64,000 nucleotides of DNA from an uncultured Candidatus Saccharibacteria bacterium (GCA_964576615.1 CAZNUU010000004.1:4663-68662); one strand, 5' to 3'. Shown: positions 5,280 to 30,457, numbered from the stretch's first letter. Numbers and translations: made by a program. The notes: a model not told the origin generated them from the sequence alone.

Positions 5280-5467
5280 TTGATTTTTAGCCTTTTTTCT
5301 TGTATATTTTTCGAGTAGCTAAAGTAATCATGGTCAGGGATATTCTGTTCGCCGACGCGAACAGAATTCCACGACCCTGCCTCACTTGTTTTTTCTACTG
5401 AAAAAACATAGTTCCGGCTCGCATAAGTCTTTGAGAAATCAAAGCAGTTTGATTACTCAAAGCTTAT

Positions 5468-5540
5468 GCGCCCATAACTCAGCTGGTAGAGTAGCTCCCT
5501 TTTAAGGAGAAAGTCGCAGGTCCGATTCCTGCTGGGCGCA
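5468..5540 (+). tRNA. tRNA-Lys, anticodon UUU.
   Basis: The cloverleaf has the acceptor stem GCGCCCA/TGGGCGC and the anticodon loop CTTTTAA. The T-arm is GCAGG-TCCGATT-CCTGC. No CCA is encoded. Confidence 0.8.
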
Positions 5541-5544
5541 CACG

Positions 5545-5575
5545 ACGAATAAAATTCCCTGAACGGGAATTTTTT
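5545..5575 (+). terminator. Hairpin and T-run immediately after tRNA-Lys. It is the first part of the conserved tRNA tail.
   Basis: aaaattccct-gaac-gggaatttttt. Confidence 0.6.
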
Positions 5576-5679
5576 CGTACGTGTGCGAGACGGAGCGCGT
5601 CGTCTGCTCAGGCAGACCCACAAGCGAGTCCGGGTCGGGAAAGTTTTTAGTAAAAAACTATTCCTGACCACATGACTTT

Positions 5680-6378
5680 TTGATTCTATTTGATATAGTT
5701 TTGCTACAAATGAATCTAGAAGAATTTAAAAAGCAGTATGTTATTGGCGAGCTTGGTATAAGCAAGTCTTATGGAAAGATAATGACTGTTATAGATTTTG
5801 GGAATGTTAATTATTGGTTTAATGAGGATAGGCAAGATTCCGAGAATAAGCTTCTGAAAGACGATGAAAAATTTAGGATAAAATTACCAGCCCTTTATGA
5901 CTTTATATCTCTGTTTTCTGACCATGTGCGTTTTTATTATGGTCATGATCCTTCTAGACATGAATCTATTGGCTTTCTTTCAGCAACAAGATCTATATTT
6001 GGTAAAAAAGTATTTACAAAACCAATCCAAAAAGTCAGACATCATCTTTCGCCTGAAGAAATATTTTCAAATAAAAGGGACACATTTTCTGATGGTGAGG
6101 GTGTTTATGTGCATGTTCCAAAATGTAATTTTGATGTAGAAATATCAGTGGACTCGATGCGTCTTTTAGATCAATATGACACATTAGCCTTATTCTCTAG
6201 TGATGCTGATTTTATTAGTTTAATTCGCTTTTTAAAAGGAAAAGGTAAGAAAATTATTTTATTTAAGGGAGGGTTTATTTCTTCTGATTTAAGAAAAGGA
6301 GTTGATAAGATAATAAATGCTCAAAATATTAAGAGACACATTGCTGAGGTCGTAAAAAAGCAAAAACCTGGCATTTAG
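5680..6378 (+). CDS. NYN / LabA-like domain protein.
   Basis: The motif VIDFGNVNYW and the C-terminal LFSSDADFISLIRFLKGKGKKIILF are typical of NYN/LabA proteins (PF01936-like). The true start may be a downstream Met. Confidence 0.55.
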   Translation: MILFDIVLLQMNLEEFKKQYVIGELGISKSYGKIMTVIDFGNVNYWFNEDRQDSENKLLKDDEKFRIKLPALYDFISLFSDHVRFYYGHDPSRHESIGFLSATRSIFGKKVFTKPIQKVRHHLSPEEIFSNKRDTFSDGEGVYVHVPKCNFDVEISVDSMRLLDQYDTLALFSSDADFISLIRFLKGKGKKIILFKGGFISSDLRKGVDKIINAQNIKRHIAEVVKKQKPGI

Positions 6379-6390
6379 CCAGGTTTTGCG
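6364..6390 (+). terminator. Hairpin plus T-run overlapping the stop codon.
   Basis: aacctggc-attta-gccaggttttg. Confidence 0.55.
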
Positions 6391-6509
6391 AACCGATAAC
6401 CCGTATCCACGGGCAGGTATGTAAAGTCTATATCAGTTAAATGAAAATTTCAAGAAGTTGGGGATAATGAATATATTATAGACACAAAAACCCTAATTAT
6501 AAGCTATAT

Positions 6510-6564
6510 AACTTGTGGGGAAATTAAAATGGCTGTTACAGCCATTTTAATTTCCCCACAAGTT
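6510..6564. repeat. Perfect 26-bp palindrome with a 3-nt spacer. It spans the predicted ATG at 6529.
   Basis: acttgtggggaaattaaaatggctg-tta-cagccattttaatttccccacaagt. Confidence 0.8.
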
Positions 6565-7050
6565 GGTGTACAGCTCACAAGTACAAACATTTGTGTCGCA
6601 ATTAGAGATTTTGATATAGAAATTAATGATTTTTTAGAGGGCATCAAAGTTCTTATTAAGTATATCAAAAAACAGAGAAAAAATAAATTTATTGGTATAA
6701 TTAATTTGATGCCGAATAATAGACCTACTCCTCAAGTACTAGAATTAGTTGACGCTCTTAGAAAAAGAGGAGTGGAACTAGAAGTCGAACATTGGGATGG
6801 ACACAAACACATTGACGTCTACATTCCCAAAGATAATTTATATATCGAAGTCGATGGAATGCATCATACAACTAAACCTGAAACTATTATTTCCGATTTA
6901 AATCGTGACTATTTCTCATTTAAGGATGGATTTTTTACCAAACATATAACAAATGAAGCTATCGATACTCATTTAGATGAGATAGCTGATGCAATAGCCC
7001 ATGTCGCCAAAAACGCACCTAATAAAATTGGTGAAAACCTACATTCCTGA
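6529..7050 (+). CDS. DUF559 / Vsr-like (PD-(D/E)xK) endonuclease-domain protein. The N-terminal extent is uncertain.
   Basis: The C-terminal segment HKHIDVYIPKDNLYIEVDGMHH resembles the DUF559 endonuclease fold. The first 12 codons are encoded by the palindrome, so the real start may be a downstream Met, for example MPNNR. Confidence 0.4.
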   Translation: MAVTAILISPQVGVQLTSTNICVAIRDFDIEINDFLEGIKVLIKYIKKQRKNKFIGIINLMPNNRPTPQVLELVDALRKRGVELEVEHWDGHKHIDVYIPKDNLYIEVDGMHHTTKPETIISDLNRDYFSFKDGFFTKHITNEAIDTHLDEIADAIAHVAKNAPNKIGENLHS

Positions 7051-7053
7051 TAT

Positions 7054-7437
7054 CTACAATGGATAATCAAAAGCGAAAGCGCCTGGACCGGTAAGGAGAA
7101 GAGAGATTAAAATAAGTTCCATGAGGACCATAAGAGCAATTTTTTCCCGAGGAACGGGACCAGCTTTTCTTTCTGTCCAATAATCAAATTTGATTAACAG
7201 GATTGCAACCACTGCTGCGATCTGGGTATAAAGACCCACGATAATCATTATGCTGGAGACGATATAAAAGATCCCTGTCCAACCATAGTCTTTCCTACTT
7301 CTGTCCACACCTGCAAGAAGACGCAACCCCCCGATTCCTATTCGCAAAATCGTTGGAGCAAAAAAGCCATAATTTAGAAGTAGGGGAAAAACAGTAAGTA
7401 TATGCATAAAAATATTATATGTTATATTGCTTTCCAT
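7054..7437 (-). CDS. DoxX family membrane protein.
   Basis: Four predicted TM segments. The motif LRIGIGGLRLLAGVDRSRK is DoxX-like. Confidence 0.55.
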   Translation of the reverse strand: MESNITYNIFMHILTVFPLLLNYGFFAPTILRIGIGGLRLLAGVDRSRKDYGWTGIFYIVSSIMIIVGLYTQIAAVVAILLIKFDYWTERKAGPVPREKIALMVLMELILISLLLTGPGAFAFDYPL

Positions 7438-7915
7438 GACAAAGCCGAAAGAAGTTGTGGTTTTACTTCACAATATTCGTAGTACTCATAACGTTGGCTC
7501 TATTTTTCGAACATCTGACGCTCTAGGGGTATCAAAAATTTATATCTCAGGTTACACCCCAACCCCAATTGATAGATTTAATAGACCGAGAAAAGGTATT
7601 GCTAAGGTCTCTCTGGGTGCTGAAAAAAGTATTGCTTGGGAATACCTGAAAGACCCGAAGTCTATTTTAAAGAAGCTAAAGCAAGGAGGTTTTGAAATTG
7701 TGGCCTTGGAACAAGCTAAAGGTTCCAAAAACTATAAAAATATAAAAGTTAAAAATAAGACGGTTTTTGTTGTCGGAAACGAAGTCGAGGGTATCTCTCG
7801 AAACTTACTTAAACTGTCCGACATCATTGTCGAGATTCCAATGAAGGGTGAGAAGGAATCTCTAAATGTCTCTGTCGCCTTTGCAGTGGCACTTTTTCGG
7901 ATACTAGATCAATAA
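7427..7915 (+). CDS. SpoU/TrmH-class RNA 2'-O-methyltransferase.
   Basis: The motifs LLHNIRSTHNVGSIFRTSDALG and VVGNEVEGIS, and the SPOUT knot motifs, are present. 162 aa. Confidence 0.75.
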   Translation: MLSMTKPKEVVVLLHNIRSTHNVGSIFRTSDALGVSKIYISGYTPTPIDRFNRPRKGIAKVSLGAEKSIAWEYLKDPKSILKKLKQGGFEIVALEQAKGSKNYKNIKVKNKTVFVVGNEVEGISRNLLKLSDIIVEIPMKGEKESLNVSVAFAVALFRILDQ

Positions 7916-8793
7916 CTTATTGAATCCACTATTTTTCCTAGATTGTCATATAATGTAAGCGTCTCGCGGCGGTCCCTCCAAACGCTTCCCGTGTGTTTTA
8001 AATAAACTCTCCATTCATTGCCATAAAAATCGCGGTCGTTTTTGTGTCTATCGACGCAAGATGGATAATTAATTTTTGTATAGATAAAGTTGTTACATTC
8101 ATAGCTAAAACTTGGCGGCAAATTGTCAGTTTGGATTCGGCAAGATGGCATGGAATCAATATAGTCAAAACACGTATCATTTACCGGTGTATTTGGGATA
8201 GAGGAGAGGTCTTCATTTCTAGGAGCAGGACAAGAAGAAGTAATATATGGAATAAAAGTTTGAAATTGAGAAAGATAACCAGAGCATTTGTTTGATTTGA
8301 AGCCTACTCCTACTGGAGAAATTCCAGAGACAACATAGAGATAATCTCCTGAGTTCAGATAGATATTTTGTTCGGAGTTAATTGTAGATGTATAAAAGAG
8401 ATAAGCGCCTTTTGGAATTTGAACTGTTGTGTTGGTGGGGGATTCTTTAAGTGTCCAACCGGTTACGGGAATTGATTCGCTATCATAACTACTGTCTCTT
8501 ATAGCCACATATTCCTGAGATGGATCGTTTGCGTGGCTCACATATAGGAGGGAAACCTTACCTTTATAAACTGAATTTAGCTTTTTATCCTCCTCAACTT
8601 GGATTTTTTTCTGCAAATCTTCAACCTGGCTTTGAGCGTCGTTTACTCCCTCCTGGATGGTAACGTATTTTTGTTCAGGGGTTCTGGCTTCACCTGAGAC
8701 AAGACCATTGTGGTGGGCCCCAGTAGCTCCGCCAAAAAGTAGGGCAGCTATTACTATGCCTAAAATCAAAAGTCCTAATAGGCCATCGTTCAT
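7909..8793 (-). CDS. Membrane-anchored secreted protein with a Cys-rich C-terminal domain. Function unknown.
   Basis: An N-terminal TM segment (LLGLLILGIVIAALLF). Many Cys residues in the C-terminal half. Confidence 0.5.
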   Translation of the reverse strand: MNDGLLGLLILGIVIAALLFGGATGAHHNGLVSGEARTPEQKYVTIQEGVNDAQSQVEDLQKKIQVEEDKKLNSVYKGKVSLLYVSHANDPSQEYVAIRDSSYDSESIPVTGWTLKESPTNTTVQIPKGAYLFYTSTINSEQNIYLNSGDYLYVVSGISPVGVGFKSNKCSGYLSQFQTFIPYITSSCPAPRNEDLSSIPNTPVNDTCFDYIDSMPSCRIQTDNLPPSFSYECNNFIYTKINYPSCVDRHKNDRDFYGNEWRVYLKHTGSVWRDRRETLTLYDNLGKIVDSISY

Positions 8794-8816
8794 GAGTTAA
8801 TTTTATAACAGAATTT

Positions 8817-8916
8817 AACAAATTACATTATTTTGGAGACTTGCGAGCACGACGGCGCGAGCACGAGGAATTTTCTAGCAAGAAAATATCCGTGCTCCAA
8901 AATAATGTAATTTGTT
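8817..8916 (-). repeat. Copy 2 of the conserved-core element, in reverse orientation. It is flanked by a perfect 22-bp inverted repeat.
   Basis: aacaaattacattattttggag lies at 8817-8838 and ctccaaaataatgtaatttgtt at 8895-8916. Between them is the reverse complement of cacggatattttcttgctagaaaattcctcgtgctcgcgccgtcgtgctcgcaagt. Confidence 0.7.
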
Positions 8917-8920
8917 ATTG

Positions 8921-9817
8921 CTACTTTTGGCAATTCGGACAATAAACTGTTGTGCGCCCAGCAATTTTCGTCTCACTTAAAACATGTCCACACCTAAGGC
9001 ATTTTTCACCGCCCCGGCCATAAACTTTGTGCTCTCTCGCATAGTTACCCAAGCTTTCATCTAATAGACGGTAAGTTGCAACTGATGAGCCGCCGACTAA
9101 AATTGCCCTTTTTATTATTCTTAAAATTGCGGTATGGAGTCTTGCTGTCTCTTCACTTTTTAAGCTTCGGGCAACTCGATCTGGTCTGATTTTTGCCTCA
9201 AACAGGCTTTCATCCGTGTAGATATTGCCTAAACCTACCACCACACTCTGTCCCATGAGTACAGATTTTATTTTATCAGTGCTGCCTCCGAGAGATTTTT
9301 CGAAATAGCTTAACGTAAATTTCTTGTCTAATGGCTCTATACCAAGTGAGTCAAAATGATTTGTTTTCTCTAGATCTAGAAAAGATGGGTAGTAAAGCAA
9401 GTAGCCGAACATGCGCGTATCATTATAATAAAGTGTGCCTTTCTCAAGGTTGAAAATAACATGAGAGTGCTTGTTAGGCAGGATGCTTTCTGAAATTTCT
9501 ATAGGGTGTCCACCAACTACTTTTGTTTTGTCTTTTCCTTTATACACAAATTGGCCAGACATTTTAAGGTGAACAAGAAGTACTTTTCCGCTTCTGAATT
9601 TAATAATTAAATTTTTTGCTCTTCTTTCTATGGAATCGAACTCTTCTCCCTTAAGTTCCTTTTCAAACTCTATAACTTTTTTAGAGGATGAAGTACGGAT
9701 GTTGCCTTTACCAGAAACTAGTTTGGGTTTTCGAACATTAACGGACAGAATTTTTTGCCCAACAATATTTTTTTCAAGACCTCGCTTTAGATTTTCTACT
9801 TCAGGCAGCTCTGGCAT
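8921..9817 (-). CDS. mutM: Formamidopyrimidine-DNA glycosylase.
   Basis: The N-terminus is MPELPEVE. The C-terminal zinc finger reads CLRCG...CPNCQ. Confidence 0.9.
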   Translation of the reverse strand: MPELPEVENLKRGLEKNIVGQKILSVNVRKPKLVSGKGNIRTSSSKKVIEFEKELKGEEFDSIERRAKNLIIKFRSGKVLLVHLKMSGQFVYKGKDKTKVVGGHPIEISESILPNKHSHVIFNLEKGTLYYNDTRMFGYLLYYPSFLDLEKTNHFDSLGIEPLDKKFTLSYFEKSLGGSTDKIKSVLMGQSVVVGLGNIYTDESLFEAKIRPDRVARSLKSEETARLHTAILRIIKRAILVGGSSVATYRLLDESLGNYAREHKVYGRGGEKCLRCGHVLSETKIAGRTTVYCPNCQK

Positions 9818-10368
9818 TATGAAAGCAACTTTAATGCCTTTTTGACTTTTTCGCCAGTGTCCTTAACATCAGAGGCTTTTTTGAGTGCTTCTCTTGATTC
9901 TTGTTCACTGTAGCCGAGAGACTTAAGGGCTTCTAGAGCGTCGATATCACCAGAGAGGGAATGAGTTTCACCGGAGAGATCTTGGATTTTATCTTTTAAT
10001 TCTAAGACGATTTTTTCAGCATTCTTTTTACCAATGCCAGAAACCTTAGTTAAATGTCCTGTATCACCAGTTGCAATTGCTTTGCGCAAGTTGGAAAGGG
10101 AAGCCATTGAGAGTATTGCTATAGCTGACTTGGGTCCTATACCCGAGACGGAGAGAAGAAGTTCAAAGAAATCCAGTTCTTCTTTTTTAGAAAAACCGTA
10201 TAAATCTAGAGCATTTTCTTTTACGGCCAAATGTGTCCAAAATTCTGTATCTTTGCCTTTATTTAGACTGGCTGTTTTTGTATAAATCTTGTAGCCAATT
10301 CCAGAGACATCTAAAACAACTGATTTCAAATCCTTTTCAATGATTTTACCTTTGAGATAGCTGATCAT
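9817..10368 (-). CDS. ruvA: Holliday junction DNA helicase subunit RuvA.
   Basis: The helix-hairpin-helix repeats (LLSVSGIGPKSA, KVSGIGKKNAEKI) are present. The domain III tail is also present. Confidence 0.85.
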   Translation of the reverse strand: MISYLKGKIIEKDLKSVVLDVSGIGYKIYTKTASLNKGKDTEFWTHLAVKENALDLYGFSKKEELDFFELLLSVSGIGPKSAIAILSMASLSNLRKAIATGDTGHLTKVSGIGKKNAEKIVLELKDKIQDLSGETHSLSGDIDALEALKSLGYSEQESREALKKASDVKDTGEKVKKALKLLS

Positions 10369-10407
10369 GTGTGTATATGATACCAGTTTATAACGTTATT
10401 AATAAAA

Positions 10408-10436
10408 TTGACATTTATTCTAGGGTGGGGTTACAT
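10408..10436 (+). promoter_or_regulatory. Promoter of cassette C: TTGACA, a 17-nt spacer, then TTACAT.
   Basis: TTGACA lies at 10408-10413 and TTACAT at 10431-10436. GGGAGGTG lies at 10463-10470 before the ATG at 10476. Confidence 0.45.
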
Positions 10437-10475
10437 AAGCAATAGAAACCAGCAACATGCTGGGGAGGTGACGAC

Positions 10476-10982
10476 ATGCACAGGTTGTTATTGAAGTTCG
10501 CGATCTCAGTTGTTCTTGTCACTTTGTCAGGGTGGATCCTGTCGCTCTATTTCAGACCTGGGGTCCAGCCAAAGATGGAGGTTTTTACAAGAGGTGCTTC
10601 GGACATCTGGTTCGTGGCGCCGACCTGGGGCAATCCTCAGGTTTGCACCTGGTTTGATCGTGGTGACTTCCTGAAAATTGCCCATGGGCCGGTTGCAGTT
10701 ACCGGGCCAAGCGAAGACAATAAAATTTCGCTGCATGCCATCGATCGAAATGTGTGTCATGCCTGGACACCGGCCATTTCTCAAGAGGGCGATTTCGGTT
10801 ACGTAATCTCGGGAGTGGTCGTGACTACAGATTCAATCTCAGTCACTACTAGCAGAAGTTTCGCCCTTGTGTGGCTGTCTGCGTTCGTCTTTGTTGTCGC
10901 TCTCGGGTTCTTTTTGGCTTTTCTTGTGCAGCTGGTCGAGTATTTTCGTTATCGACCCAAATTGGCTGAGCCGGCCAACTAA
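10476..10982 (+). CDS. Membrane protein with N- and C-terminal TM segments, with elevated GC (cassette C).
   Basis: 168 aa. It has its own promoter, a strong SD and a terminator. Confidence 0.5.
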   Translation: MHRLLLKFAISVVLVTLSGWILSLYFRPGVQPKMEVFTRGASDIWFVAPTWGNPQVCTWFDRGDFLKIAHGPVAVTGPSEDNKISLHAIDRNVCHAWTPAISQEGDFGYVISGVVVTTDSISVTTSRSFALVWLSAFVFVVALGFFLAFLVQLVEYFRYRPKLAEPAN

Positions 10983-10989
10983 CCTACCC

Positions 10990-11027
10990 AGAGCCTTCGT
11001 GTGTAGCACGAAGGCTCTTTGCTTTTA
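10990..11027 (+). terminator. Hairpin followed by a T-run.
   Basis: gagccttcgtg-tgtag-cacgaaggctc, followed by tttgctttt. Confidence 0.6.
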
Positions 11028-11071
11028 TGTTGAGATTGATTTATTTTTTCAAATAGGATAGTATCGAAGCC

Positions 11072-11335
11072 ATGCCAATTACCACATCTGCTAAAAAAGC
11101 ACTCCGAGTTTCGCACAAAAAGCGAGTTTTTAATAATGCAAAAAAGGACCTCATCAACAAAACTATCAAGCAATTCAAAAAGCTTGTTTCAGAGAAGAAA
11201 ATAAAAGAGGCTAAGGAACAAATCAAGAATGTTCAAAAAGTTTTAGATAAATCAGTTAAAACTGGACTTATAAAATTAAATACAGCAGCAAGAAAGAAAT
11301 CGAGGTTAGTTAAAATGCTTAAGAAACTAGGTTAA
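11072..11335 (+). CDS. rpsT: 30S ribosomal protein S20.
   Basis: The N-terminus is MPITTSAKKALR and the C-terminus is TAARKKSRL. A TTGATT-N17-TAGTAT promoter lies upstream. Confidence 0.8.
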   Translation: MPITTSAKKALRVSHKKRVFNNAKKDLINKTIKQFKKLVSEKKIKEAKEQIKNVQKVLDKSVKTGLIKLNTAARKKSRLVKMLKKLG

Positions 11336-11336
11336 A

Positions 11337-11411
11337 TGGTGCTCCCGGCAGGAATCGAACCCACATTACAACCTCCGCAAGGTTGCGTCCTATCCATTGA
11401 ACGACGAGAGC
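11337..11411 (-). tRNA. tRNA-Arg, anticodon read as GCG. CCA is encoded.
   Basis: The cloverleaf has the acceptor stem GCTCTCG/CGGGAGC. The anticodon stem is CAACC/GGTTG with loop TTGCGGA. G37 is consistent with a CGN reader. A G34 anticodon is unusual for Arg. Confidence 0.65.
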
Positions 11412-11425
11412 TTGGCTTTACATTA

Positions 11426-11881
11426 TCAGAATCCCAAATAAAGCAAAACTTTTTCCAAAAAAGGTTCACGATGTTCCTCTTCTGGTAGGTATTGGCTTAG
11501 AAAAGTCTGGACCTCATCTGGTTTAACCTCTTCAATAAAAATTGTAATCAGGTGCATCACAAGTTTCTTTGATTTGATCAGAATTCTGGGATGAAATTCT
11601 CTTGTCTCAACCCAAAAGGATTCCAAACTGGAATAAGGATAAAGTGTTTTATTGATCATGATACCTCCTTCATTTAATTCTACTGCTATTACATGTGGTC
11701 TTCTGGATGCAAACAGAGCTAAGGTAAAAGAAGAGACAAGAATTAAAATTGCGAAAATCACATTGTTTAAAATAATAGAAATAATAGCTATTGAAACAGT
11801 TACAATTCCAACTATCCAATACCAGTCGGCTGTTTTTTCCGTATGAAAATACTCAACAGTCTCCCAGGATAATTTTTTCAT
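11426..11881 (-). CDS. Hypothetical membrane protein.
   Basis: Two TM segments near the N-terminus. No recognisable motif. Confidence 0.45.
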   Translation of the reverse strand: MKKLSWETVEYFHTEKTADWYWIVGIVTVSIAIISIILNNVIFAILILVSSFTLALFASRRPHVIAVELNEGGIMINKTLYPYSSLESFWVETREFHPRILIKSKKLVMHLITIFIEEVKPDEVQTFLSQYLPEEEHREPFLEKVLLYLGF

Positions 11882-11884
11882 AAG

Positions 11885-12328
11885 TTAGATTTGAGGGAGG
11901 TCGACTGGTCTTTTTGGCGACTCTATCGAGGCCCAAATAGTTAATGCACAGGCGATTAGTGCGATATTTTTTATTATGTACTGACCTTCTAGTGTCGGGA
12001 CCAGAAACTTTACCCAAACTTCTGACATAATAAAAATTGGTAGAACCGTTGTAATTATATGAATGAAAAACAAAATTAGTGCGTACTTTTCCTTCCCCGG
12101 TATTACAAACAGTATACCAATCAGCATTTCAAAAAGACCAAATAAAACAATAAAGGAGCTAAAGGGAAAGAACGGCATTGTTTTGGAAAGTAGGTGCTGA
12201 ATTAACTCTTTTAACTCGGGATTTGCTAGACCGATAACTTTTATTAGTCCAAACCAAAAATAGATTAAAAACAAGGAAACTCTTGATAAAAGAACAGAAT
12301 ATTGTCGAATGTTCATTCTCTGGTTCAT
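11885..12328 (-). CDS. Hypothetical multi-pass membrane protein. The start is probably an internal Met, to avoid overlapping the divergent DedA gene.
   Basis: A hydrophobic profile. Using the longest ORF would overlap the start of 12364. Confidence 0.4.
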   Translation of the reverse strand: MNQRMNIRQYSVLLSRVSLFLIYFWFGLIKVIGLANPELKELIQHLLSKTMPFFPFSSFIVLFGLFEMLIGILFVIPGKEKYALILFFIHIITTVLPIFIMSEVWVKFLVPTLEGQYIIKNIALIACALTIWASIESPKRPVDLPQI

Positions 12329-12363
12329 ATCATAATAATAACATCTCATGATAAAATAGGTAT

Positions 12364-12969
12364 ATGTCAGGATCTGTAGTTTCTCTTTTGCAGTATTATA
12401 AATACCCGATAATTTTTCCACTAGCTACTTTTGAGGGTCCGGTAGTTTCTCTGGCGGTCGGTTTCTTGGTTAGAGTCGGGGTATTTAAATTTTTACTGGC
12501 GTACCTTGTTATGATTACAGGAGACATTATCCCTGACAGCTTGTTTTATTTTATCGGTTATTATGGCAATGAGGCAAAAGTTGCCAAGAAGTATTTATCT
12601 AAATCTAAATTTTTTTCAAATCACTTTCCTGCAGTAGAGAGACTTTGGCTTGAGCATCCAGTAAAAATAATGTTTTTTGGTAAGCTGGCTTATGGTATGG
12701 CACTGCCTTTTTTAATCACAGCAGGAATGACCAAGATTCCGTATAAAAGATTTATAAAAATCGCTTTTCCTATTACACTTCTACAGTATTTTGTTCTAAT
12801 GGTGGTGGGGTATTACTTAGGATCTTTATATGGGGGAGCCACAAAATATGTTGAGTGGTTTTATTTCGTCTTTGCATTAGTCGTTGTTGTATTCATGTTG
12901 GTTTATCTAGTCAAATTTGCTAGGAGAAATATTGCCAAAATAGAAAAAGAGGCGGAGTTAGGGAAATAA
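12364..12969 (+). CDS. DedA / SNARE-associated family membrane protein.
   Basis: FEGPVVSLAVGFL ... ITGDIIPDSLFYFIGYYG matches the DedA signature. Confidence 0.65.
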   Translation: MSGSVVSLLQYYKYPIIFPLATFEGPVVSLAVGFLVRVGVFKFLLAYLVMITGDIIPDSLFYFIGYYGNEAKVAKKYLSKSKFFSNHFPAVERLWLEHPVKIMFFGKLAYGMALPFLITAGMTKIPYKRFIKIAFPITLLQYFVLMVVGYYLGSLYGGATKYVEWFYFVFALVVVVFMLVYLVKFARRNIAKIEKEAELGK

Positions 12970-12970
12970 C

Positions 12971-14380
12971 ATGAGTAAAAAAATATCCTGCATAATCCCG
13001 GCCTACAACGAAGAAAAAAGTATCGCAAAAGTTCTCTCTGTTGCTGGTTCCCTCCTTGGTTCACATATCTACGAAATAATCGTCATAGATGATAAATCAA
13101 AAGACAATACAAAAAAAATTGTTAAGACTTTCTCCCAAGTAAAATTAATTGAAAATCCAATAAACCAAGGTAAGAGTAAAAGTGTGGCGAATGCAATAAA
13201 ACAGTCACAAGGTGATTATATTTTCCTACTCGATGCAGACTTACTTTTTCTTAACCAAGAAAATATTAAAAATTTAATTGAGCCTATTATGTCCGGAGTA
13301 GCTGATGTAACAATAAGCTATAGAAAAAATGCGTGGCCACTTTTTCCATTTAAAGACATAGATTATTGTTCGGGCGAGAGAGTTTTTCCTAAAAAATATG
13401 TCACTCCTTTTTTAGATGCTATGTCGCGTTTACCGAGCTATGGGTTGGAGGTTTTTATCAATAGAAACATTATCATTTTAAATAAACTTCGTTTATTAGT
13501 AGTGAAATGGCCAAATGTTGAAAACGATTTTCATCACAAGAAAAAGAGTTTATTCGCTGGGATTTATGCAACATTAAGAATTTGGTTTCAGGTAATTAAG
13601 AGTTCGTCAATAATTGAAATTTATACTCAAAACATAATGATGAAGGGGCTCATGGTTAAGGAAAACAGATACAAGATAAGTCTTGTTATCTGTGCTCACA
13701 ATGAAGAAAATTATATTGCTCAATGTTTGGAGTATGTCTTAAAAAATTCTCACGGCAAATTTAATGAAATAATTGTTGTAAACAATGCCAGCACAGATAA
13801 AACAAAAGAGATTGCGGAGAAATACCCGGTTCGGGTCCTCGATGAGCCAAACAAGGGTCAGGTACGTGCGCGCCAGAGAAGTGTTGGAGAAGCCGGAGGA
13901 GATTTAATTGCATATATTGATGCGGACACTCGTATGCCTGAAAACTGGGTTGACTCTGCTATTTTTGAATTCGAAAAAGACAAAGACCTAGCTCTTTTAA
14001 GTGGTCCTTATATTTACTATGAATTCTCAAGTTGGGAGAATTTCCTAACGAAAATTTATTGGTATGTATTTGCTTACCCTACCTATTTATTTGTCGGTTA
14101 TATGGCGGTGGGAGGAAATTTTGTGATTAGAAAAGATGTATTAGATAAAATGAATGGTTTTGACACTAGCATTGAATTTTGGGGAGAAGATACAAATATT
14201 GCAAAAAGAGCCAGCCAATTCGGTAAGGTTAAGTTTAGTTTGCGTTTTTATATGTTGTCATCAGCTCGGCGCCTCAGACAATCTGGAATATTGAAAACAG
14301 CAGGGAATTATGTGGTAAACTTTCTAAGCCAGGTTTTTTTGAAAAAATCTGCCATGTCTTCCTATGAAGATATAAGATAG
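12971..14380 (+). CDS. Glycosyltransferase with two tandem family-2 (GT2) domains.
   Basis: The first domain has ISCIIPAYNEEKSI...VIDDKSKDNT. The second has SLVICAHNEENYI...VVNNASTDKT and DADTR. Confidence 0.7.
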   Translation: MSKKISCIIPAYNEEKSIAKVLSVAGSLLGSHIYEIIVIDDKSKDNTKKIVKTFSQVKLIENPINQGKSKSVANAIKQSQGDYIFLLDADLLFLNQENIKNLIEPIMSGVADVTISYRKNAWPLFPFKDIDYCSGERVFPKKYVTPFLDAMSRLPSYGLEVFINRNIIILNKLRLLVVKWPNVENDFHHKKKSLFAGIYATLRIWFQVIKSSSIIEIYTQNIMMKGLMVKENRYKISLVICAHNEENYIAQCLEYVLKNSHGKFNEIIVVNNASTDKTKEIAEKYPVRVLDEPNKGQVRARQRSVGEAGGDLIAYIDADTRMPENWVDSAIFEFEKDKDLALLSGPYIYYEFSSWENFLTKIYWYVFAYPTYLFVGYMAVGGNFVIRKDVLDKMNGFDTSIEFWGEDTNIAKRASQFGKVKFSLRFYMLSSARRLRQSGILKTAGNYVVNFLSQVFLKKSAMSSYEDIR

Positions 14381-14382
14381 AA

Positions 14383-15030
14383 ATGAAAGCCTTAGTAATA
14401 AAACATAAAAATTTATGGAACAACAGAACTTTTGTTGTTTCGGTTTCAGTATCCTTACTTCTTTTAATCATTAGTTTTTGTGTAAATTATGTTGCAGTCA
14501 AGGTTGCCACAGAAGACATAGGGAATTCTACAACCGATATTCTCCTCGATAACCTCCCTGTCGTTAATACTGATTTTATTGTGAGCGAAGGCGCGGCTAT
14601 TTTCACAGCCTTTATTGTATTTCTATGCATATTTGACCCAAAGATTATCCCTTTTTTGATTAAAAGCATTGCACTTTTTATTTTTATAAGGGCACTTTTT
14701 GTAGTAATGACCCATTTGGCTCCATTTCCAAACCACATCAATGCGGATTATAGCAATTTGAAGTATATAAGCTCTGGATCAGATTTATTTTTTTCAGGTC
14801 ATACCGGCATGCCTTTTTTACTCAGTTTAATTTTCTGGGATCATAAATTACTTCGATATGTTTTTCTCGCGATTTCGATCATTGCAGCCGTAGGAGTTAT
14901 TCTTGGACATCTACATTACACTATCGACGTTTTTTCAGCCTTTTTTATCACTTTTGGGATATACCATATGGTTTTGAAATTTTTCACAAAAGATTACAGA
15001 CTCTTTCTTCATGGTCCGGAAACCAACTAG
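14383..15030 (+). CDS. PAP2-family membrane phosphatase.
   Basis: The motifs SGHTG and GHLHYTIDV are the PAP2 signature. Confidence 0.55.
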   Translation: MKALVIKHKNLWNNRTFVVSVSVSLLLLIISFCVNYVAVKVATEDIGNSTTDILLDNLPVVNTDFIVSEGAAIFTAFIVFLCIFDPKIIPFLIKSIALFIFIRALFVVMTHLAPFPNHINADYSNLKYISSGSDLFFSGHTGMPFLLSLIFWDHKLLRYVFLAISIIAAVGVILGHLHYTIDVFSAFFITFGIYHMVLKFFTKDYRLFLHGPETN

Positions 15031-15031
15031 C

Positions 15032-15967
15032 TTATTTATAGTTTGAAAGAATATTTTTTACCGAATTGATTGGTATGGAAAAGCTAATACTATTTCCACC
15101 CTGGACTGTGGCCACATTTATTCCAACTATATCTCCGTTTAAATCAATAAGTGGACCGCCTGAATTTCCTGGATTGATCGCAGCATCTGTTTGAATAATA
15201 TTGGACAATGTCTCCGATTTGCCGGTTTCATCTTGGGCGGTGATACTTCTGTTTAGGCCAGAGACGATTCCAACAGAAACTGAATTGTCATATTCACCCA
15301 AAGCATTACCAATTGCCGCAACTGTTTGTCCAAGTTTTAGGCCGGAGGAGTCTCCAATTGATCCGATTGTTTTGTAACTTCCATCAATTTTTATTATGGC
15401 AATATCGTTATTTAAATCTCTGTATATGACTTTTGCTGTTTTTTGACTACCATTTGAAAGGAGAACAGTATATTGGGCCGAGGAGTCAAAGATGACATGT
15501 TTGTTAGTTACGATATATCCATCTTGTCTAAAAAGTATTCCCGTGCCAGCCCCGACCTTTTTAAGTGTGTTGCCGGTTTGGCGGTAAACTGGAATTCGGA
15601 AACCAGGGTCGGGTAAAGAAGGGTCGTCGCCAAATGGATTAACGTAAGCTACTTCGTATTGTGGTGCATATTGAGATATGACAATTGATACAACTGCTGG
15701 AGCAGTTTTTGCTACAGCCGAAGTCAGGAGCTGGTCTTGTGATTTTTGCACAACCTGTTTTCGATTCAGGAGTTCCTGGGCAGAAATCGCTGCAGCAAAA
15801 CTTCTCGAGCTAGATGCCAGAGACATCGTTTGGTTTTGTAGATTGCCAATTTCTCTTTGAAGCGTCAGGACTTTAGAGTTGAAAGACTGATTCTGTTTGA
15901 TATTCCAAAATACCTGAGTAGCCAGAGCAAGGACAAGAATAAATATAAATCCAATGGTTCTTTTCAT
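15032..15967 (-). CDS. Trypsin-like serine protease (HtrA/DegP-like S1C). It has no obvious PDZ domain.
   Basis: The motifs GNSGGPL, TNKHV and DIAIIKI are present. There is an N-terminal signal/anchor. Confidence 0.75.
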   Translation of the reverse strand: MKRTIGFIFILVLALATQVFWNIKQNQSFNSKVLTLQREIGNLQNQTMSLASSSRSFAAAISAQELLNRKQVVQKSQDQLLTSAVAKTAPAVVSIVISQYAPQYEVAYVNPFGDDPSLPDPGFRIPVYRQTGNTLKKVGAGTGILFRQDGYIVTNKHVIFDSSAQYTVLLSNGSQKTAKVIYRDLNNDIAIIKIDGSYKTIGSIGDSSGLKLGQTVAAIGNALGEYDNSVSVGIVSGLNRSITAQDETGKSETLSNIIQTDAAINPGNSGGPLIDLNGDIVGINVATVQGGNSISFSIPINSVKNILSNYK

Positions 15968-16032
15968 ACAATATTAATACGAAATATGGAGGGAAAAGTT
16001 CCCGATATTATAACACGTAGGTGGGGAAATTG

Positions 16033-16117
16033 CGGAGGCGGTGAGATTCGAACTCACGGTACCTTGCGGCACTCCCGTTTTCAAGACGGGTGCACTCGAC
16101 CACTATGCGACGCCTCC
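16033..16117 (-). tRNA. tRNA-Ser, anticodon UGA.
   Basis: The acceptor stem is GGAGGCG/CGCCTCC. The anticodon loop is CTTGAAA. There is a long variable arm. The T-arm is GTGAG-TTCGAAT-CTCAC. Confidence 0.8.
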
Positions 16118-16121
16118 AGTA

Positions 16122-16343
16122 TTACTTACTTTCTATTGTCTCTACAGTATACTTTTTAGCCACAAAGTATATGTAGATGATCTCTAAAATACCTAATGTG
16201 TTTATGATTAGCAAGGCGACAAACCATTTCTTGTGAGAGAGTCTAGCTGCTTTCCAAAGTGCCCAACCCTTCCAAGGCAGTGTCCAAAGGACAACAAGGG
16301 CGATGAGCCAAGCCGGAATGTTACTAAATGTATCTGGCGACAT
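16122..16343 (-). CDS. Small two-TM membrane protein.
   Basis: 73 aa. It carries a WKGWALWKAA motif. Confidence 0.45.
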   Translation of the reverse strand: MSPDTFSNIPAWLIALVVLWTLPWKGWALWKAARLSHKKWFVALLIINTLGILEIIYIYFVAKKYTVETIESK

Positions 16344-16407
16344 AATTAACTTATTTTAATTTACTTATTAATAGTAGCAAAAAACAGAAAAATGTTAAGA
16401 TAACCTA

Positions 16408-16809
16408 ATGAAGTATTTAGGCATTGACTATGGAGAAAAAAGAGTTGGCATAGCCATATCAGATGAGGAAGGAAAGTTAGCTTTCCCCTTTTCTGTCTCA
16501 GAAAACTCGGAGAAACTTATTTCTCAAATAGTTAATATATGTACTGAGAATAATATCTCGGAAATAATTGTGGGGGAGTCGAAAGATTTTATGCAAAATG
16601 AAAATACTATAATGGAGGAAATAAAAAAATTTGCGGAAGATCTAGGGAAAGAAATCAAGCTACCAATCCGTCTTCATCCTGAGTTTATGACTTCGGTCGA
16701 GGCGGAGAGAATCCAGGGTAAAAACGAAATGCTCGATGCTTCTGCTGCCGCTTTAATTTTAAGGCACTATTTAGATACAATTAATAACAAAAATAGTGAA
16801 AATGTATGA
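16408..16809 (+). CDS. ruvX: Putative Holliday junction resolvase / pre-16S rRNA nuclease YqgF.
   Basis: The N-terminus is MKYLGIDYGEKRVGIAISD. It is RNase H-like, 133 aa. Confidence 0.75.
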   Translation: MKYLGIDYGEKRVGIAISDEEGKLAFPFSVSENSEKLISQIVNICTENNISEIIVGESKDFMQNENTIMEEIKKFAEDLGKEIKLPIRLHPEFMTSVEAERIQGKNEMLDASAAALILRHYLDTINNKNSENV

Positions 16810-17195
16810 TTTCAATTGAAGATTTCAAAAAATTGGAAATAAAAATAGGGGAAATAAAAAGTGCTGAAAAAGTTCCTGAGACTGACAAATTACTCAAACT
16901 CTCCGTAGATTTTGGGCTAAAATCGCAAGGCGATTCGCCCGATCAGAACAGTAGTTCTGGTTTAGGGGAGAGAGAAATAAGACAGATTATTTCTGGGATA
17001 AGTGAGTTTTTCCCAGAACTAGAGAAACTAATTGGTAAGAAGTGTGCTTTTGCCTATAATCTCGAGCCGAGGACAATAAGAGGACTAGAGAGCCAGGGTA
17101 TGATTCTCGCAGTAAATGGTGGGGAGGGTGAAGAGAAATTCTTCTCGCTTTTGGAAGTTAATCCCGAGACAAAATCTGGCAGTAAAGTGAAGTAG
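16806..17195 (+). CDS. tRNA-binding (EMAPII / CsaA-like) domain protein.
   Basis: The motifs LEIKIGEIKSAEKVPETDKLLKLSVDFG, ISGISEFF, GKKCAFAYNLEP and GMILAV are present. Its ATG overlaps the ruvX stop in an ATGA arrangement. Confidence 0.6.
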   Translation: MISIEDFKKLEIKIGEIKSAEKVPETDKLLKLSVDFGLKSQGDSPDQNSSSGLGEREIRQIISGISEFFPELEKLIGKKCAFAYNLEPRTIRGLESQGMILAVNGGEGEEKFFSLLEVNPETKSGSKVK

Positions 17196-17239
17196 TTTTA
17201 CCTGTTTTTTTGGCTTCGCCTTGGTATAATTAAGCAAGT

Positions 17240-18205
17240 ATGTTTAATAAAATACTAGAGGCATTCCCACCGCCCAGGTTTTTAAGTTTGCCATTTTCGG
17301 GAGTTGCAATTTCTGACTCGGCTGTGAGATGTATACAGTTCGGTAGGCGTCACGGGTCTTTATATATTGAAAAATATGCAGAAAAAAAACTGCCTCCAGG
17401 CGTTGTAATCTCTGGAGAGATAAATAACCCAGATGAACTTATAAACACACTATCTAGTCTTAAAAAAGAGCTTAATTTAAATTATGTTCGGGTTTCCCTG
17501 CCAGAAGAGAGGGCCTACCTTTTCACTGCCAAGATTCCAATTGTGAAACAGAAGGAAGTTCGAAGTGCGATTGAGTCGAAAATGGAAGAAAATGTGCCGG
17601 TTTCTCCTACGGAATTAACTTATGACTACAAGCTATTTCATCATAAACAAAAACAACATTTAGACATTGTAGTATCCTGTCTACCAGTTAAGTTTATCGA
17701 TAATTATGTGGAAATAATAAAAAAAGCTGGTCTTTACCCGCTTTCACTGGAGATAGAATCTCAAGCAATTGTCAGGGCACTTCTGCCCCCAAATAGTTTT
17801 GGTACATCGCTCATCATACATTTCAATCCTGATAAAGTTGGCCTTTACGTCGAAAGTTTTGGGGTTGTAAGGTTTACCTCGACAATTCCACTAAAGGGGG
17901 AGTTGGCTACGGATCCGAATTTTCTTTCAGCAGAGATAAAAAAACTTTTTGTTTATTGGCATACCTTGAAAGAAAATATCGATAAGCCCGACAACAAAAT
18001 AACTAGAATCATTGCCTGTGGTGAGAATTTCGACGAGACGACGATTTCCTATCTCTCGGGCCACAATAAAACTGCAGCCTCGATTGGAAATGTCTGGATT
18101 AATGCTTTTAATATCGAAAAAAAACTGCCAGAAATTTCATTTAATGATTCACTAAAGTATACTGCAGCTGTTGGGCTTGCTCTTCCAACCGAGGCATTAA
18201 TATAA
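17240..18205 (+). CDS. pilM: Type IV pilus assembly protein PilM (actin-like ATPase).
   Basis: The length and position fit, and the sequence has PilM-like character. It is followed by PilN- and PilO-like genes. Confidence 0.6.
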   Translation: MFNKILEAFPPPRFLSLPFSGVAISDSAVRCIQFGRRHGSLYIEKYAEKKLPPGVVISGEINNPDELINTLSSLKKELNLNYVRVSLPEERAYLFTAKIPIVKQKEVRSAIESKMEENVPVSPTELTYDYKLFHHKQKQHLDIVVSCLPVKFIDNYVEIIKKAGLYPLSLEIESQAIVRALLPPNSFGTSLIIHFNPDKVGLYVESFGVVRFTSTIPLKGELATDPNFLSAEIKKLFVYWHTLKENIDKPDNKITRIIACGENFDETTISYLSGHNKTAASIGNVWINAFNIEKKLPEISFNDSLKYTAAVGLALPTEALI

Positions 18206-18208
18206 GCT

Positions 18209-18748
18209 ATGTTTAACGTACTTCCGGAAAATATAAAAAGAGAAATTAAGTCAAACTACAGGATGCGTTTGATAGTTGTGTGTCTGCTCATCATTATTGT
18301 AGTTCAGGTTTCTGCTTTAGTGTTCATGCTGCCTTCTTGGGTCAGTTCATACTATAGGCAAAAAGATGTCGCAAACAGAGCTGAAAAAATGAATCAAAAC
18401 TTGCCAGCCATTGATATGACGGCCATTGATTCAGAAATAAAATCGACCAACTTTAAATTAAAAATACTAACCTCAACCTTAGAATATCCAGAAATTATTC
18501 CGTATATTAACCTTATTTTAGAAAACAAGACTAACTCAATTAAATTAAATAGTCTTACTTATACTCTCCCAAATCAGTCTTCAGCCAAGTTTAACTTAAA
18601 CGGTGTAGCCGATTCTCGAGATGCTCTTCTAGCTTTTGTTAAAAATATTCAAAACACTGGAAAGTTTAAGGCGGTTGATCTGCCGATTTCGAACTTTGCT
18701 AAAGATAAGAATATTAGATTTTCACTTGATCTTACTATCAATTCATGA
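18209..18748 (+). CDS. pilN: PilN-like protein. It has one N-terminal TM segment and a periplasmic domain.
   Basis: The topology and its position in the operon. Confidence 0.5.
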   Translation: MFNVLPENIKREIKSNYRMRLIVVCLLIIIVVQVSALVFMLPSWVSSYYRQKDVANRAEKMNQNLPAIDMTAIDSEIKSTNFKLKILTSTLEYPEIIPYINLILENKTNSIKLNSLTYTLPNQSSAKFNLNGVADSRDALLAFVKNIQNTGKFKAVDLPISNFAKDKNIRFSLDLTINS

Positions 18749-19278
18749 AGTCTCTAAAAGTTACAATAGTAATACTGGCTCTAGTTTCTGCAGTACTTTT
18801 TTATGCGAAGTATTATATCTATCAAAATATAAAAGAGATTAATCAAAATGTCTCAGTCCTGGAGAACGGGCTCTCATCTTCGGACGAGAGAAGGGCATAC
18901 CAAATTGCAACTAAAAAAAATATAGCGAATCTTGAACCAGAAATAACCAAGATAAATAATTCAATCATCGCAAATGGTGAGGATGTTAAATTTATTGAAG
19001 ACTTGGAAGCCTTAGCCAACAGCAATGGTTTAAGTATCGATATAAGCTCCCTTTCCTTCGAGGACGATCCGAAAATCTCTTCCTCAACAATCACCACTTT
19101 TGTTATCAAAGCAAAAGCAAAGGGGGGGTGGGCCGGTAATTATACATTCCTCGCAGAGATGGAGTCCTTGCCCTTTAAGGTAAAGATCAATCGATTTGCA
19201 CTATCTAATATTGGCTTAGATAGCGGAGCAATTGGTTGGCAGTCAGATTTTGAAATGAGGGTCCTCAAATACAAATAA
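18745..19278 (+). CDS. pilO: PilO-like protein.
   Basis: An N-terminal TM segment, a coiled region, then a C-terminal domain. Its ATG overlaps the pilN stop in an ATGA arrangement. Confidence 0.45.
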   Translation: MKSLKVTIVILALVSAVLFYAKYYIYQNIKEINQNVSVLENGLSSSDERRAYQIATKKNIANLEPEITKINNSIIANGEDVKFIEDLEALANSNGLSIDISSLSFEDDPKISSSTITTFVIKAKAKGGWAGNYTFLAEMESLPFKVKINRFALSNIGLDSGAIGWQSDFEMRVLKYK

Positions 19279-19604
19279 TGAAAAAGATACTTGAAAAGTT
19301 AAAACCATATTTGGAAAAAATGAAGATGGGTAATTCCTATCGCAAGGAGGGAATTTGGCCAGAACGTGACTGGAAAATAATTCTGTCAGTTACTTTTATT
19401 GCTGTAATACTTGTCGGAGGGTTGTCAGTTTACTTTTACTTAGAAATTGATCAAGGCAACCTTTTTCAGGTTGAAAGCGCTGGGATGAATCAAGAATTAA
19501 AAATCGACGCTGGTCTACTTACGAAAACTATTGGCGAGATAAACTCAAGGCAGGATGCTCTCGCAAATATTAAGAATAATGTGCCGAAAGATCCGTCTCT
19601 TTAA
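19278..19604 (+). CDS. Small single-TM pilus-operon protein (PilP-like?).
   Basis: Its start overlaps the pilO stop in a TAATG arrangement. One TM segment. Confidence 0.35.
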   Translation: MKKILEKLKPYLEKMKMGNSYRKEGIWPERDWKIILSVTFIAVILVGGLSVYFYLEIDQGNLFQVESAGMNQELKIDAGLLTKTIGEINSRQDALANIKNNVPKDPSL

Positions 19605-19636
19605 TTCGAGTCAATTTTCTGATAATCTAAAGCCAC

Positions 19637-19708
19637 GCTCTCGTAGTTCAATGGATAGAACCGCGGACTTCTAAGCCGCTGATGTAAGTTCGATTCTTAC
19701 CGAGAGCA
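19637..19708 (+). tRNA. tRNA-Arg, anticodon UCU.
   Basis: The acceptor stem is GCTCTCG/CGAGAGC. The anticodon stem is GCGGA/GCCGC with loop CTTCTAA. The T-arm is GTAAG-TTCGATT-CTTAC. Confidence 0.8.
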
Positions 19709-19717
19709 CACAGACGA

Positions 19718-19746
19718 AATAATTCCCTTGAAGGGAATTTTTCGTA
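19718..19746 (+). terminator. Hairpin and T-run after tRNA-Arg. It is homologous to the hairpin after tRNA-Lys.
   Basis: ataattccct-tgaa-gggaattttt. Confidence 0.55.
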
Positions 19747-19820
19747 CTTGTGTGAGGCAGGCTGAGGGGCCGAGCCGGGGTCGCGGAAAATTTCAGGAGA
19801 AATTTATCTGTGACCAATAT

Positions 19821-30441: not shown

Positions 30442-30457
30442 GCGGCCGGGGCCTTGT

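Follow-up and report, generated by a model that had tools for sequence, protein, structure and literature searches.

Two tRNA tails and the element they share

We analysed 64,000 nucleotides (nt) of DNA recorded as coming from an uncultured Candidatus Saccharibacteria bacterium (GCA_964576615.1, CAZNUU010000004.1:4663-68662). Within this stretch, referred to here as the window, two different tRNA genes are followed by similar tails carrying a small structured element that we name E. The genes are tRNA-Lys(UUU) at 5468-5541 on the plus strand (ARAGORN; 65.5 bits with the Rfam tRNA model) and tRNA-Arg(UCU) at 19637-19709, also on the plus strand (ARAGORN and Rfam), neither with an encoded CCA. 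The gene content of the window includes PolA, the DNA polymerase III delta subunit, UppS, IleRS, RecA, FtsK, L11 and SSB, at a G+C content of ~0.39. Its best PolA relatives are labelled Candidatus Zambryskibacteria, Parcubacteria group, Paceibacterota and Minisyncoccia, and by its predicted genes the window genome is cellular and of Parcubacteria type (candidate phyla radiation, Patescibacteria), not phage. A phage BLAST of the Lys locus returned tRNA matches only.

An earlier, sequence-only reading had noted that the DNA behind these two tRNAs runs in parallel, and the alignment bears this out, with the tRNAs and the quoted strings lying where they had been placed. Local alignment of the Lys and Arg trailers scored 51, against 15.8 +/- 2.5 (maximum 30) for dinucleotide shuffles (n=500), and the hairpin parts of the two tails are identical at 40 of 43 aligned bases (93%). 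Aligned with either tail, the trailers of the other five window tRNAs reach scores of only 14-18; together with the shuffles, this demonstrates that the similarity is real and specific to the Lys and Arg tails. The parallel run had been taken to end in the middle of a second hairpin, and the common unit in fact reaches 5669 in the Lys tail (5676 with a short flank repeat) and 19815 in the Arg tail. Far from being confined to the long hairpin behind the tRNA, the similarity continues 60-80 nt past it, through E. Past GGGUCG(G/C)GGAAA, a small AT stem-loop is followed by UAUUCCUGACC (Lys) or UAUCUGUGACC (Arg). The second hairpin, of 16 bp, is formed by GGUCGGGAA/UUCCUGACC in the Lys tail and by GGUCGCGGA/UCUGUGACC in the Arg tail, with compensatory changes between them.

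E is the conserved element behind the long hairpin and has a consensus of 63 nt, AGCCGGAGCGCGACGGCGCGAGGCGGGGUCGCGGAAAUUUUCAGCAGAAAAUUAUCCGUGACC (also AGCCGGAGCGCGACGGCGCGAGGCGGGGTCGCGGAAATTTTCAGCAGAAAATTATCCGTGACC). In its first hairpin, a 3-bp stem is separated by a bulged G and tandem G·A pairs from a 4-bp GC stem with a GACG loop; the second, of 16 bp, has an AGCA loop, a bulged A and one G·U pair. We built a covariance model, R1, exclusively from metagenome copies (43) and ran it over the whole window with filters off. The two tails contain the following features:

5537-5587, plus strand: long hairpin of the Lys tail, CGCACACGACGAAUAAAAUUCCC-UGAAC-GGGAAUUUUUUCGUACGUGUGCG, read from the sequence; its 5' arm opens with the last 5 nt of tRNA-Lys (positions 70-74)
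5588-5669, plus strand: E, Lys copy (nhmmer span; R1 span 5610-5669), R1 52.2 bits, E-value 1e-10
5670-5676, plus strand: ACATGAC, a short repeat of ACACGAC (5540-5546) that begins at the discriminator, a "position 73" junction
19707-19754, plus strand: hairpin of the Arg tail, CACACAGACGAAAUAAUUCCC-UUGA-AGGGAAUUUUUCGUACUUGUGUG, taking in the last 3 nt of tRNA-Arg
19755-19815, plus strand: E, Arg copy, full length 1-63, R1 65.4 bits, E-value 7e-14

The long hairpin had been described as a shared terminator. It is indeed shared, but that description is incomplete: its stem pairs with the tRNA 3' end, and the module recurs behind other tRNAs in other genomes (loci L002, L078 and L024), so that the hairpin is part of the repeat unit. 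A scan with the Rho-independent terminator consensus found none on the plus strand at either tail, the U run being present but paired inside the longer stem. The fold of the Lys tail has a free energy of -45.2 kcal/mol (z = -3.7). The two downstream contexts differ, as had been reported, a co-directional NYN-domain gene (5710-6378) following the Lys tail and a convergent DinB-family gene (19821-20321) the Arg tail, and the conservation is not that of a shared promoter.

R1 matches six copies of E in the window, the two tails and four others, three of which are GC-rich cassettes. A seventh copy was recognised from repeats and by reading the sequence, and overall density is ~1 per 10 kb. The copies outside the two tails, with the hairpin that adjoins one of them, are:

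5332-5419, minus strand: E copy upstream of tRNA-Lys (R1 core 5332-5399), R1 30.0 bits, E-value 2.7e-5
5420-5470, no strand assigned: hairpin between this copy and tRNA-Lys; the minus strand carries loop motif CAAACUGCUUUG, and the first 3 nt of the tRNA form part of the outer pairs
4174-4289, minus strand: cassette-type E between polA and holA (core 4204-4255), R1 35.8 bits
8816-8917, plus strand: cassette-type E between two minus-strand genes (core 8841-8897), R1 39.9 bits, in a palindrome with perfect 23-nt arms
54971-55067, plus strand: cassette-type E upstream of recA (core 54990-55044), R1 45.3 bits
24491-24639, minus strand: cassette-type E, the seventh copy, its second hairpin split by an unrelated element, E2 (~24540-24606)

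Several of these copies depart from the consensus. The Arg copy lacks 2 nt of the G-GA motif of the first hairpin. In the Lys copy the first hairpin is enlarged by an additional GUCUGC/GCAGAC stem, which is why its nhmmer span exceeds its R1 span, and the second hairpin reads GGUCGGGAAAGUUUUU-AGUA-AAAAACU(A)UUCCUGACC. The copy at 5332-5419 mirrors the Lys tail and has an AT-rich insert in its first hairpin, as do L068 and L118; the CAAACUGCUUUG loop motif beside it also lies 5' of E in L067, L068, L073, L095 and L118. Each of the three cassettes matched by R1 (4174, 8816 and 54971) sits in the loop of a long AT-rich palindrome with arms of 23-30 nt and a flank duplex of about -16 kcal/mol; at the polA-holA copy the arms are 30 nt long and 93% complementary, and the duplex -15.6 kcal/mol. 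All four non-tRNA copies are antisense to neighbouring genes, and the other five tRNAs of the window have no E.

The sequence-only reading had also tied the tails to GC-rich cassettes. This agrees with the three cassettes that match R1, which are copies of E away from any tRNA. Its link to a particular "cassette A" (1180-1290) fared less well. The exact match of TTTTTTCGTAC at 1261-1270 is confirmed, but there is no R1 match in that region, and the window shows no enrichment of the 10-mer at up to one mismatch (10 found versus 7.0 +/- 2.7 expected); we rejected cassette A as a member of the family.

Fold, spread and tRNA junctions of E

The fold of E was evaluated on 43 gapless copies from metagenome loci (alignment A3). 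Cells were paired in 98.4% of cases, compared with 81.8% in shuffles and not above 47% in slid registers. Changes on both sides occurred in 13 pairs, accounting for 140 such cells versus 32 in shuffles. The covariation score was 0.442, compared with 0.125 in shuffles (0 of 500 reached 0.442) and at most 0.085 in slid registers. The search pattern used to collect loci constrained the second hairpin in part but left free the covarying pairs 3-23, 8-19 to 11-16, 34-56 and 37-52 to 42-47. Pair 33-57, likewise free in the pattern, is G-C in 21 copies and G-U in 20, an alternation that means the fold exists only on the tRNA-sense strand. It suggests that selection acts on E as RNA or as one strand of DNA.

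Rfam 15 contained no family that reached gathering score over E, in the window and in 32 loci; only tRNA, transfer-messenger RNA (tmRNA), rRNA, group I intron and LOOT models matched. A scan at relaxed E-value of one window stretch and two loci gave only sub-threshold, chance-level matches. The literature searched, including PMC13011429 on tRNA introns of Patescibacteria, yielded no description of E.

The family extends well beyond the window. A scan of a genome collection with the 5' hairpin pattern returned 12 chance matches and one true one, L002, a metagenome-assembled genome labelled Saccharibacteria in which tRNA-Lys(CUU) is followed by the same hairpin and E (R1 85.7 bits). A metagenome scan with the second-hairpin pattern found at least 120 loci; we discarded L085 and L108 as chance hits in coding regions, and all other loci show the E consensus. 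Over 642 kb of these loci R1 made 132 matches, with 2-5 copies in several loci, and an nhmmer profile search identified 154 copies. G+C content of E-bearing loci ranges from 0.30 to 0.62, and one high-G+C locus is Kaiserbacteria by its ClpB. Judged from these contigs, E is abundant in bacteria of predicted Parcubacteria type (candidate phyla radiation). In a scan of viral contigs the sole match was a chance hit in a phage coding region. At L135 (200-520) we observed three successive E-like units behind a tmRNA gene, two of them with another second hairpin; because such variants are invisible to the search pattern, the E family is broader than the sample analysed here.

E is closely associated with tRNA genes. 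Of 124 pattern matches, 63 have a same-strand tRNA upstream, at 38-116 nt from the second hairpin. The linked tRNAs span 15 amino acids, and E is also found behind tmRNA genes. Among the 154 nhmmer copies, 100 are within 150 nt of a tRNA or tmRNA, 83 downstream and 17 upstream, all in sense and none in antisense orientation. Copies without a tRNA split evenly, 5 in sense and 5 in antisense to co-directional genes, and so have no orientation bias. The same tRNAs (Lys, Arg-UCU, Ile-GAU and Val-UAC) carry E in many genomes, and E also adjoins antisense 5S rRNA fragments.

The 3' junction of E is base-exact and falls at one of two tRNA landmarks. In ~47 copies the right flank begins at T-loop position 57, so that ...GGUUC|GAAUCC... 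of the tRNA is matched by ...GUGACC|GAAUCC... of the element. In ~20 copies, among them the window Lys tail, L002, L134, L050 (GCAAA) and L119 (ACCAAA), it begins at the discriminator, position 73. From the junction point tRNA sequence is repeated for 18-82 nt, always to the tRNA end and then to a variable stop. The 5' side is heterogeneous, and several recurrent small hairpin modules may precede E. In the T-loop class it is an imperfect reverse complement of the repeated tRNA part, so that the flanks together restore the T stem and, in some cases, the acceptor stem as well. Copies of the position-73 class have a hairpin there, and its outer arm is complementary to tRNA positions 70-74 regardless of the bases found at them (GTGCG, GTGGA, GCGCA, GTGCA, GTGCC). 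Flanks pair better with their own partners than with mismatched ones (-10.4 versus -7.8 kcal/mol, p = 6e-8). Removing E in silico restored no tRNA except by fusion to the intact upstream gene, and in no case did E interrupt a sole functional tRNA.

Copies of E vary in arrangement between and within genomes. Tandem arrays with a period of 150-154 nt are present in L130 and L128, and L021 has a 1.6-unit array with a period of 126 nt. E2 is nested within the window copy at 24491-24639. In L016, the closest relative, where PolA is 87% identical to that of the window, the polA-holA cassette is inverted, has different outer arms and is accompanied by an additional E2 not present in the window. A short-read contig with an identical PolA terminates inside the polA-holA cassette, as expected for a repeat. 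Following PolA to orthologous loci gave no clean empty site: tRNA-Lys has no E in L017 and L018, and L016 ends within holA before reaching the tRNA. Exact look-ups of the holA and DinB proteins matched no record. To judge from their sequences, the neighbours that recur around E are housekeeping families only, for example PilM-, RluD-, LepA- and TrmH-like proteins, and no protein family keeps a fixed position relative to E. The island-like loci L076, L102 and L026 have no obvious integrase. At L102 (~960-2430 in the minus-strand view), two E units 1.4 kb apart, both followed by the tRNA 3'-end repeat GAATCCCTGTCCCCCAGCCA, flank an open reading frame (ORF) of 308 amino acids (aa), with ORFs that read as HNH- and Abi-like close by in an island-like layout.

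Mobile element, co-transcribed RNA or other origin

The Lys and Arg tails belong to a multi-copy, structured and strand-specific family that has exact tRNA junctions and varies between close relatives. On balance, we favour the interpretation that E is a small non-autonomous mobile element of Parcubacteria-type bacteria that acts in single-stranded form, as RNA or as one DNA strand; both its mobility and the way it inserts are inferred. Tandem units, the nested E2, the altered polA-holA copy of L016 and the lack of any copy that disrupts a sole functional tRNA speak for mobility. Within this interpretation the window tails are old, diverged insertions of the position-73 kind.

Several observations weigh against mobility. 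The second hairpins of the Lys and Arg tails differ substantially, which means that these tails are not recent insertions. The repeat after E is only 7 nt in the Lys tail and not recognisable in the Arg tail, and both tails have weak closing stems (-5.4 and -3.6 kcal/mol). When the ORFs around 124 copies were clustered, no transposase, integrase or reverse transcriptase proved to recur near E. Nearly all copies are full length with structure kept, and this retention, the recurrence at the same tRNAs and the 100 of 100 sense copies would equally fit a selected, co-transcribed RNA. In the tRNA-Ser cases a 5' partial copy with E in its D loop lies upstream of the gene, an arrangement that the mechanism proposed below does not explain. 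Finally, the family statistics all derive from loci chosen by a pattern that came from the window itself.

E lies in the loop, or at the foot, of a stem made by its flanks. We propose that its insertion would involve a nick or template switch at tRNA position 56|57 or 72|73. A second break further downstream would generate a long duplication with one fixed end, and the only surviving events would be those whose duplication spans the rest of the tRNA, leaving the upstream gene intact. Fold-back copying of the displaced 3' strand at a terminator palindrome could supply the arm complementary to the tRNA end. Such a scheme would explain why the 3' junction is exact, why the repeat stops at a variable place, why the 5' side is heterogeneous and why the upstream gene stays intact. 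The 3' strand that runs without a break through the stacked acceptor and T stems has its two ends at positions 73 and 57. An enzyme tracking the folded precursor from the trailer would halt at 73 and at 57, which hints at a step at the RNA level.

A more specific version of the mobile-element interpretation, which we offer tentatively and think rather unlikely, holds that E is a bacterial retroelement resembling short interspersed elements (SINEs), or another nick-and-copy element that reads tRNA structure. Its 3' end would be joined at 73 or 57, the ends of the acceptor/T-arm strand as a polymerase or nuclease would encounter them, and its insertions would leave an acceptor/T-arm mimic RNA with E in place of the T loop. 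If true, both the mobile-element mechanism and the class of tRNA-mimic RNA would be undescribed in bacteria. That E is something categorically new we likewise consider doubtful. The genomes of the candidate phyla radiation are tiny, yet E occurs about once per 10 kb in the window, and it is absent from Rfam 15 and from the literature searched. Base-exact attachment to two tRNA landmarks, together with a copied tRNA 3' strand, makes the insertion mechanism and a possible family of tRNA-mimicking RNAs testable. E may also be a practical source of assembly breaks and of mis-annotated tRNA fragments in these genomes.

The alternative with most in its favour, which we regard as possible if on the unlikely side, is that selection maintains E as a functional RNA module transcribed together with the tRNA, either as a processing or stability signal or as a small RNA within an acceptor/T-arm mimic. 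RNase P, RNase Z or RNase III would then process E with the tRNA. Strong covariation, the strand-specific fold, the uniformly sense orientation and narrow distance of the 100 tRNA-linked nhmmer copies, and the occurrence of E at the same tRNAs in many genomes all suit this explanation. So do the arm of the position-73 class, which pairs with tRNA 70-74 whatever the sequence, and the flanks of the T-loop class, which restore the T stem of the upstream tRNA together with part of its acceptor stem. It is harder to reconcile with the 5 sense and 5 antisense non-tRNA copies and the four antisense ones in the window, with tandem arrays, nested insertion and inversion between close relatives, with copies beside antisense 5S rRNA fragments, with first hairpins that are damaged or expanded in window copies, and with five window tRNAs that do without E. 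The mobile-element and functional-RNA interpretations are not mutually exclusive.

Of the explanations offered by the sequence-only reading, insertion of cassettes at tRNA 3' ends comes closest to the evidence, the tails being themselves members of the cassette family, whereas an attachment site in the integrase sense is not supported, one element serving many tRNAs with no recurrent recombinase nearby. A small RNA derived from the trailer, also suggested there, is possible. A fuller account in which the tails are scars or attachment (att) sites of integrase-driven islands at tRNA 3' ends, E being a conserved att arm, seems to us very unlikely. The direct repeats of the tRNA 3' part do begin inside the T loop, like attR, and at L102 two E-plus-repeat units 1.4 kb apart surround cargo-like genes. 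However, most units are only 100-170 nt long and lie between adjacent tRNA genes, no integrase recurs near the copies, and cassette copies occur with no tRNA nearby. Moreover, one E sequence serves tRNAs of 15 amino acids while each repeat matches its local tRNA, and the supposed identity block has E within it. The 93% identity of the hairpin part might suggest that the two tRNA loci recently underwent segmental duplication or gene conversion, or that they simply have two similar intrinsic terminators. We give this scarcely any credence: the window has six copies and at least 120 loci elsewhere carry E, at tRNAs for 15 amino acids, so the resemblance is not a private duplication. The tRNAs themselves and the sequence past the unit are unrelated, compensatory changes in the second hairpin imply old divergence, and the similarity runs 60-80 nt past the hairpin.

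E resembles several known systems in part, most of all REP-type structured repeats and elements that enter hairpin loops. Like repetitive extragenic palindromic (REP) sequences and the derived bacterial interspersed mosaic elements (BIMEs) and REP doublets forming hairpins (REPINs), which are mobilised by REP-associated tyrosine transposases (RAYTs), it consists of short GC-rich imperfect hairpins in many extragenic copies, often at terminators, with conserved mismatches and bulges, a strand-specific fold and no coding capacity. A short imperfect palindrome in many extragenic copies, which defines REP and REPIN sequences, thus describes E as well. E differs in having two unlike hairpins in fixed order (63 nt) and no GTAG-type 5' tetranucleotide; we found no fixed tetranucleotide 5' of E and, within 5 kb of copies, no recurrent transposase-like ORF, RAYT included. 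We know of no REP sequences with strict sense orientation, base-exact 57/73 junctions or tRNA 3' repeats.

With tRNA-targeting retrotransposons that lack long terminal repeats and with SINEs, which move by target-primed reverse transcription, E shares an exact junction at the 3' end, a variable one at the 5' end and target duplications that differ in length. TRE-type elements have an exact 3' and a heterogeneous 5' junction, and their target duplications vary with one end fixed. Those of Dictyostelium insert beside tRNA genes without destroying them (PMC5006619). TRE and SINE elements differ from E in being eukaryotic, in their poly(A) or defined 3' tail and in having an autonomous partner that encodes reverse transcriptase; no reverse transcriptase or such partner was seen in E loci. 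To our knowledge, there is no bacterial example of a SINE-like element that targets tRNA genes.

The attL and attR sites of islands in tRNA and tmRNA genes likewise have a partial tRNA 3' repeat that starts from the T loop downstream of an intact gene; E differs as a 100-170 nt unit without integrase, found beside dozens of tRNAs and splitting the would-be core site. As in the intervening sequences of 23S rRNA and in IS1397-like insertions into REP hairpin loops, E sits in a stem-loop whose flanks form the closing stem; intervening sequences lie within functional rRNA and are excised by RNase III, whereas E is never within the functional tRNA copy. The hairpin of the window tails recalls Rho-independent (bidirectional) terminators in its A and U runs beside a short GC stem, but its stem enters the tRNA, the U run lies inside the stem, and a conserved 63-nt structured element follows.

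Other candidates were set aside. An integrase attachment site is a poor fit: the repeat is present in relatives, but no integrase was seen near the copies, units are ~150 nt, and 15 amino acids are represented. A miniature inverted-repeat transposable element does not fit either, since arms vary between copies and follow the local target and the repeats, of 18-82 nt, are not fixed. A tRNA intron, whether group I or bulge-helix-bulge, was rejected because removal of E restores no tRNA. Group II intron domains V/VI were dropped, as the position of the AGC-like triad varies and the bulge is on the wrong strand, and a k-turn was dropped because the bulge is 1 nt, not 3. RNase P RNA, signal recognition particle RNA, tmRNA domains, hammerhead and twister cores and an attC site were dropped on reading the sequence.

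Related repeats and other features of the window

E2 is a second family of small elements, ~65 nt long and ending in GAAAGGTRTACAGNNTCTGTAAGA. We located four copies:

20364-20430, minus strand: window, at a T-loop-like site of a partial tRNA-Val copy
24540-24606, minus strand: window, inside a cassette-type E copy
L016, 9111-9200: after polA
L017, 18540-18650: in the trailer of tRNA-Arg(GCG)

Layouts like that around E were seen at other tRNAs. In the tRNA-Val trailer of the window (20345-20484, minus strand), a small hairpin (GTGCGCACTGAG[...]CGTGAGGACTCGAA) interrupts an inverted copy of the 3' end of that tRNA, and a direct partial copy, CTCGAGTCCTCTGTTACAC, lies behind E2. In L018 (15580-15727, minus strand) and L019, from Zambryskibacteria, a GC hairpin (GTGCGCCCGG[...]GTCAGGAATCGAAC) interrupts an inverted copy of the tRNA 3' end in the trailer of tRNA-Lys; there is no strong E in this trailer, with an R1 match of 26.5 bits nearby. 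The window genes for tRNA-Arg(GCG) and tRNA-Arg(UCU) share a 45-nt inverted repeat (11387-11431 and 19617-19661, 91% complementary) made of the leader ttctgataatNtaaagcca and the 5' part of the tRNA.

Among the metagenome loci, L094 is an rRNA-operon locus with four group I introns (1-2936 and 5635-5863), three within the matched 23S rRNA and one downstream, and L049 contains a LOOT RNA at 1371-1493 (83 bits).

Elsewhere in the window, the regions upstream of rplK (L11) and ssb (28240-28425 and 51350-51574) have a common repeat that takes in 44 identical nt and an internal inverted repeat, and that may be a duplicated promoter or leader. The block at 29000-32000, with a G+C content of 0.50-0.53 compared with ~0.39 elsewhere, encodes a dCMP/cytidine deaminase-domain protein and a thymidylate synthase and may have been acquired horizontally. 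Within the synthetase core of an IleRS-like protein of 1126 aa (34534-37914), residues 502-585 match the histidine-phosphatase domain His_Phos_1. Tandem repeats of 504-540 nt, 76% identical, occupy 48550-49822 within a 1273-aa ORF that has Peptidase_S74 and surface Ig-like domains. At 6510-6564, near the start of the ORF at 6529-7050, lies a perfect 27-nt inverted repeat with a 1-nt spacer.

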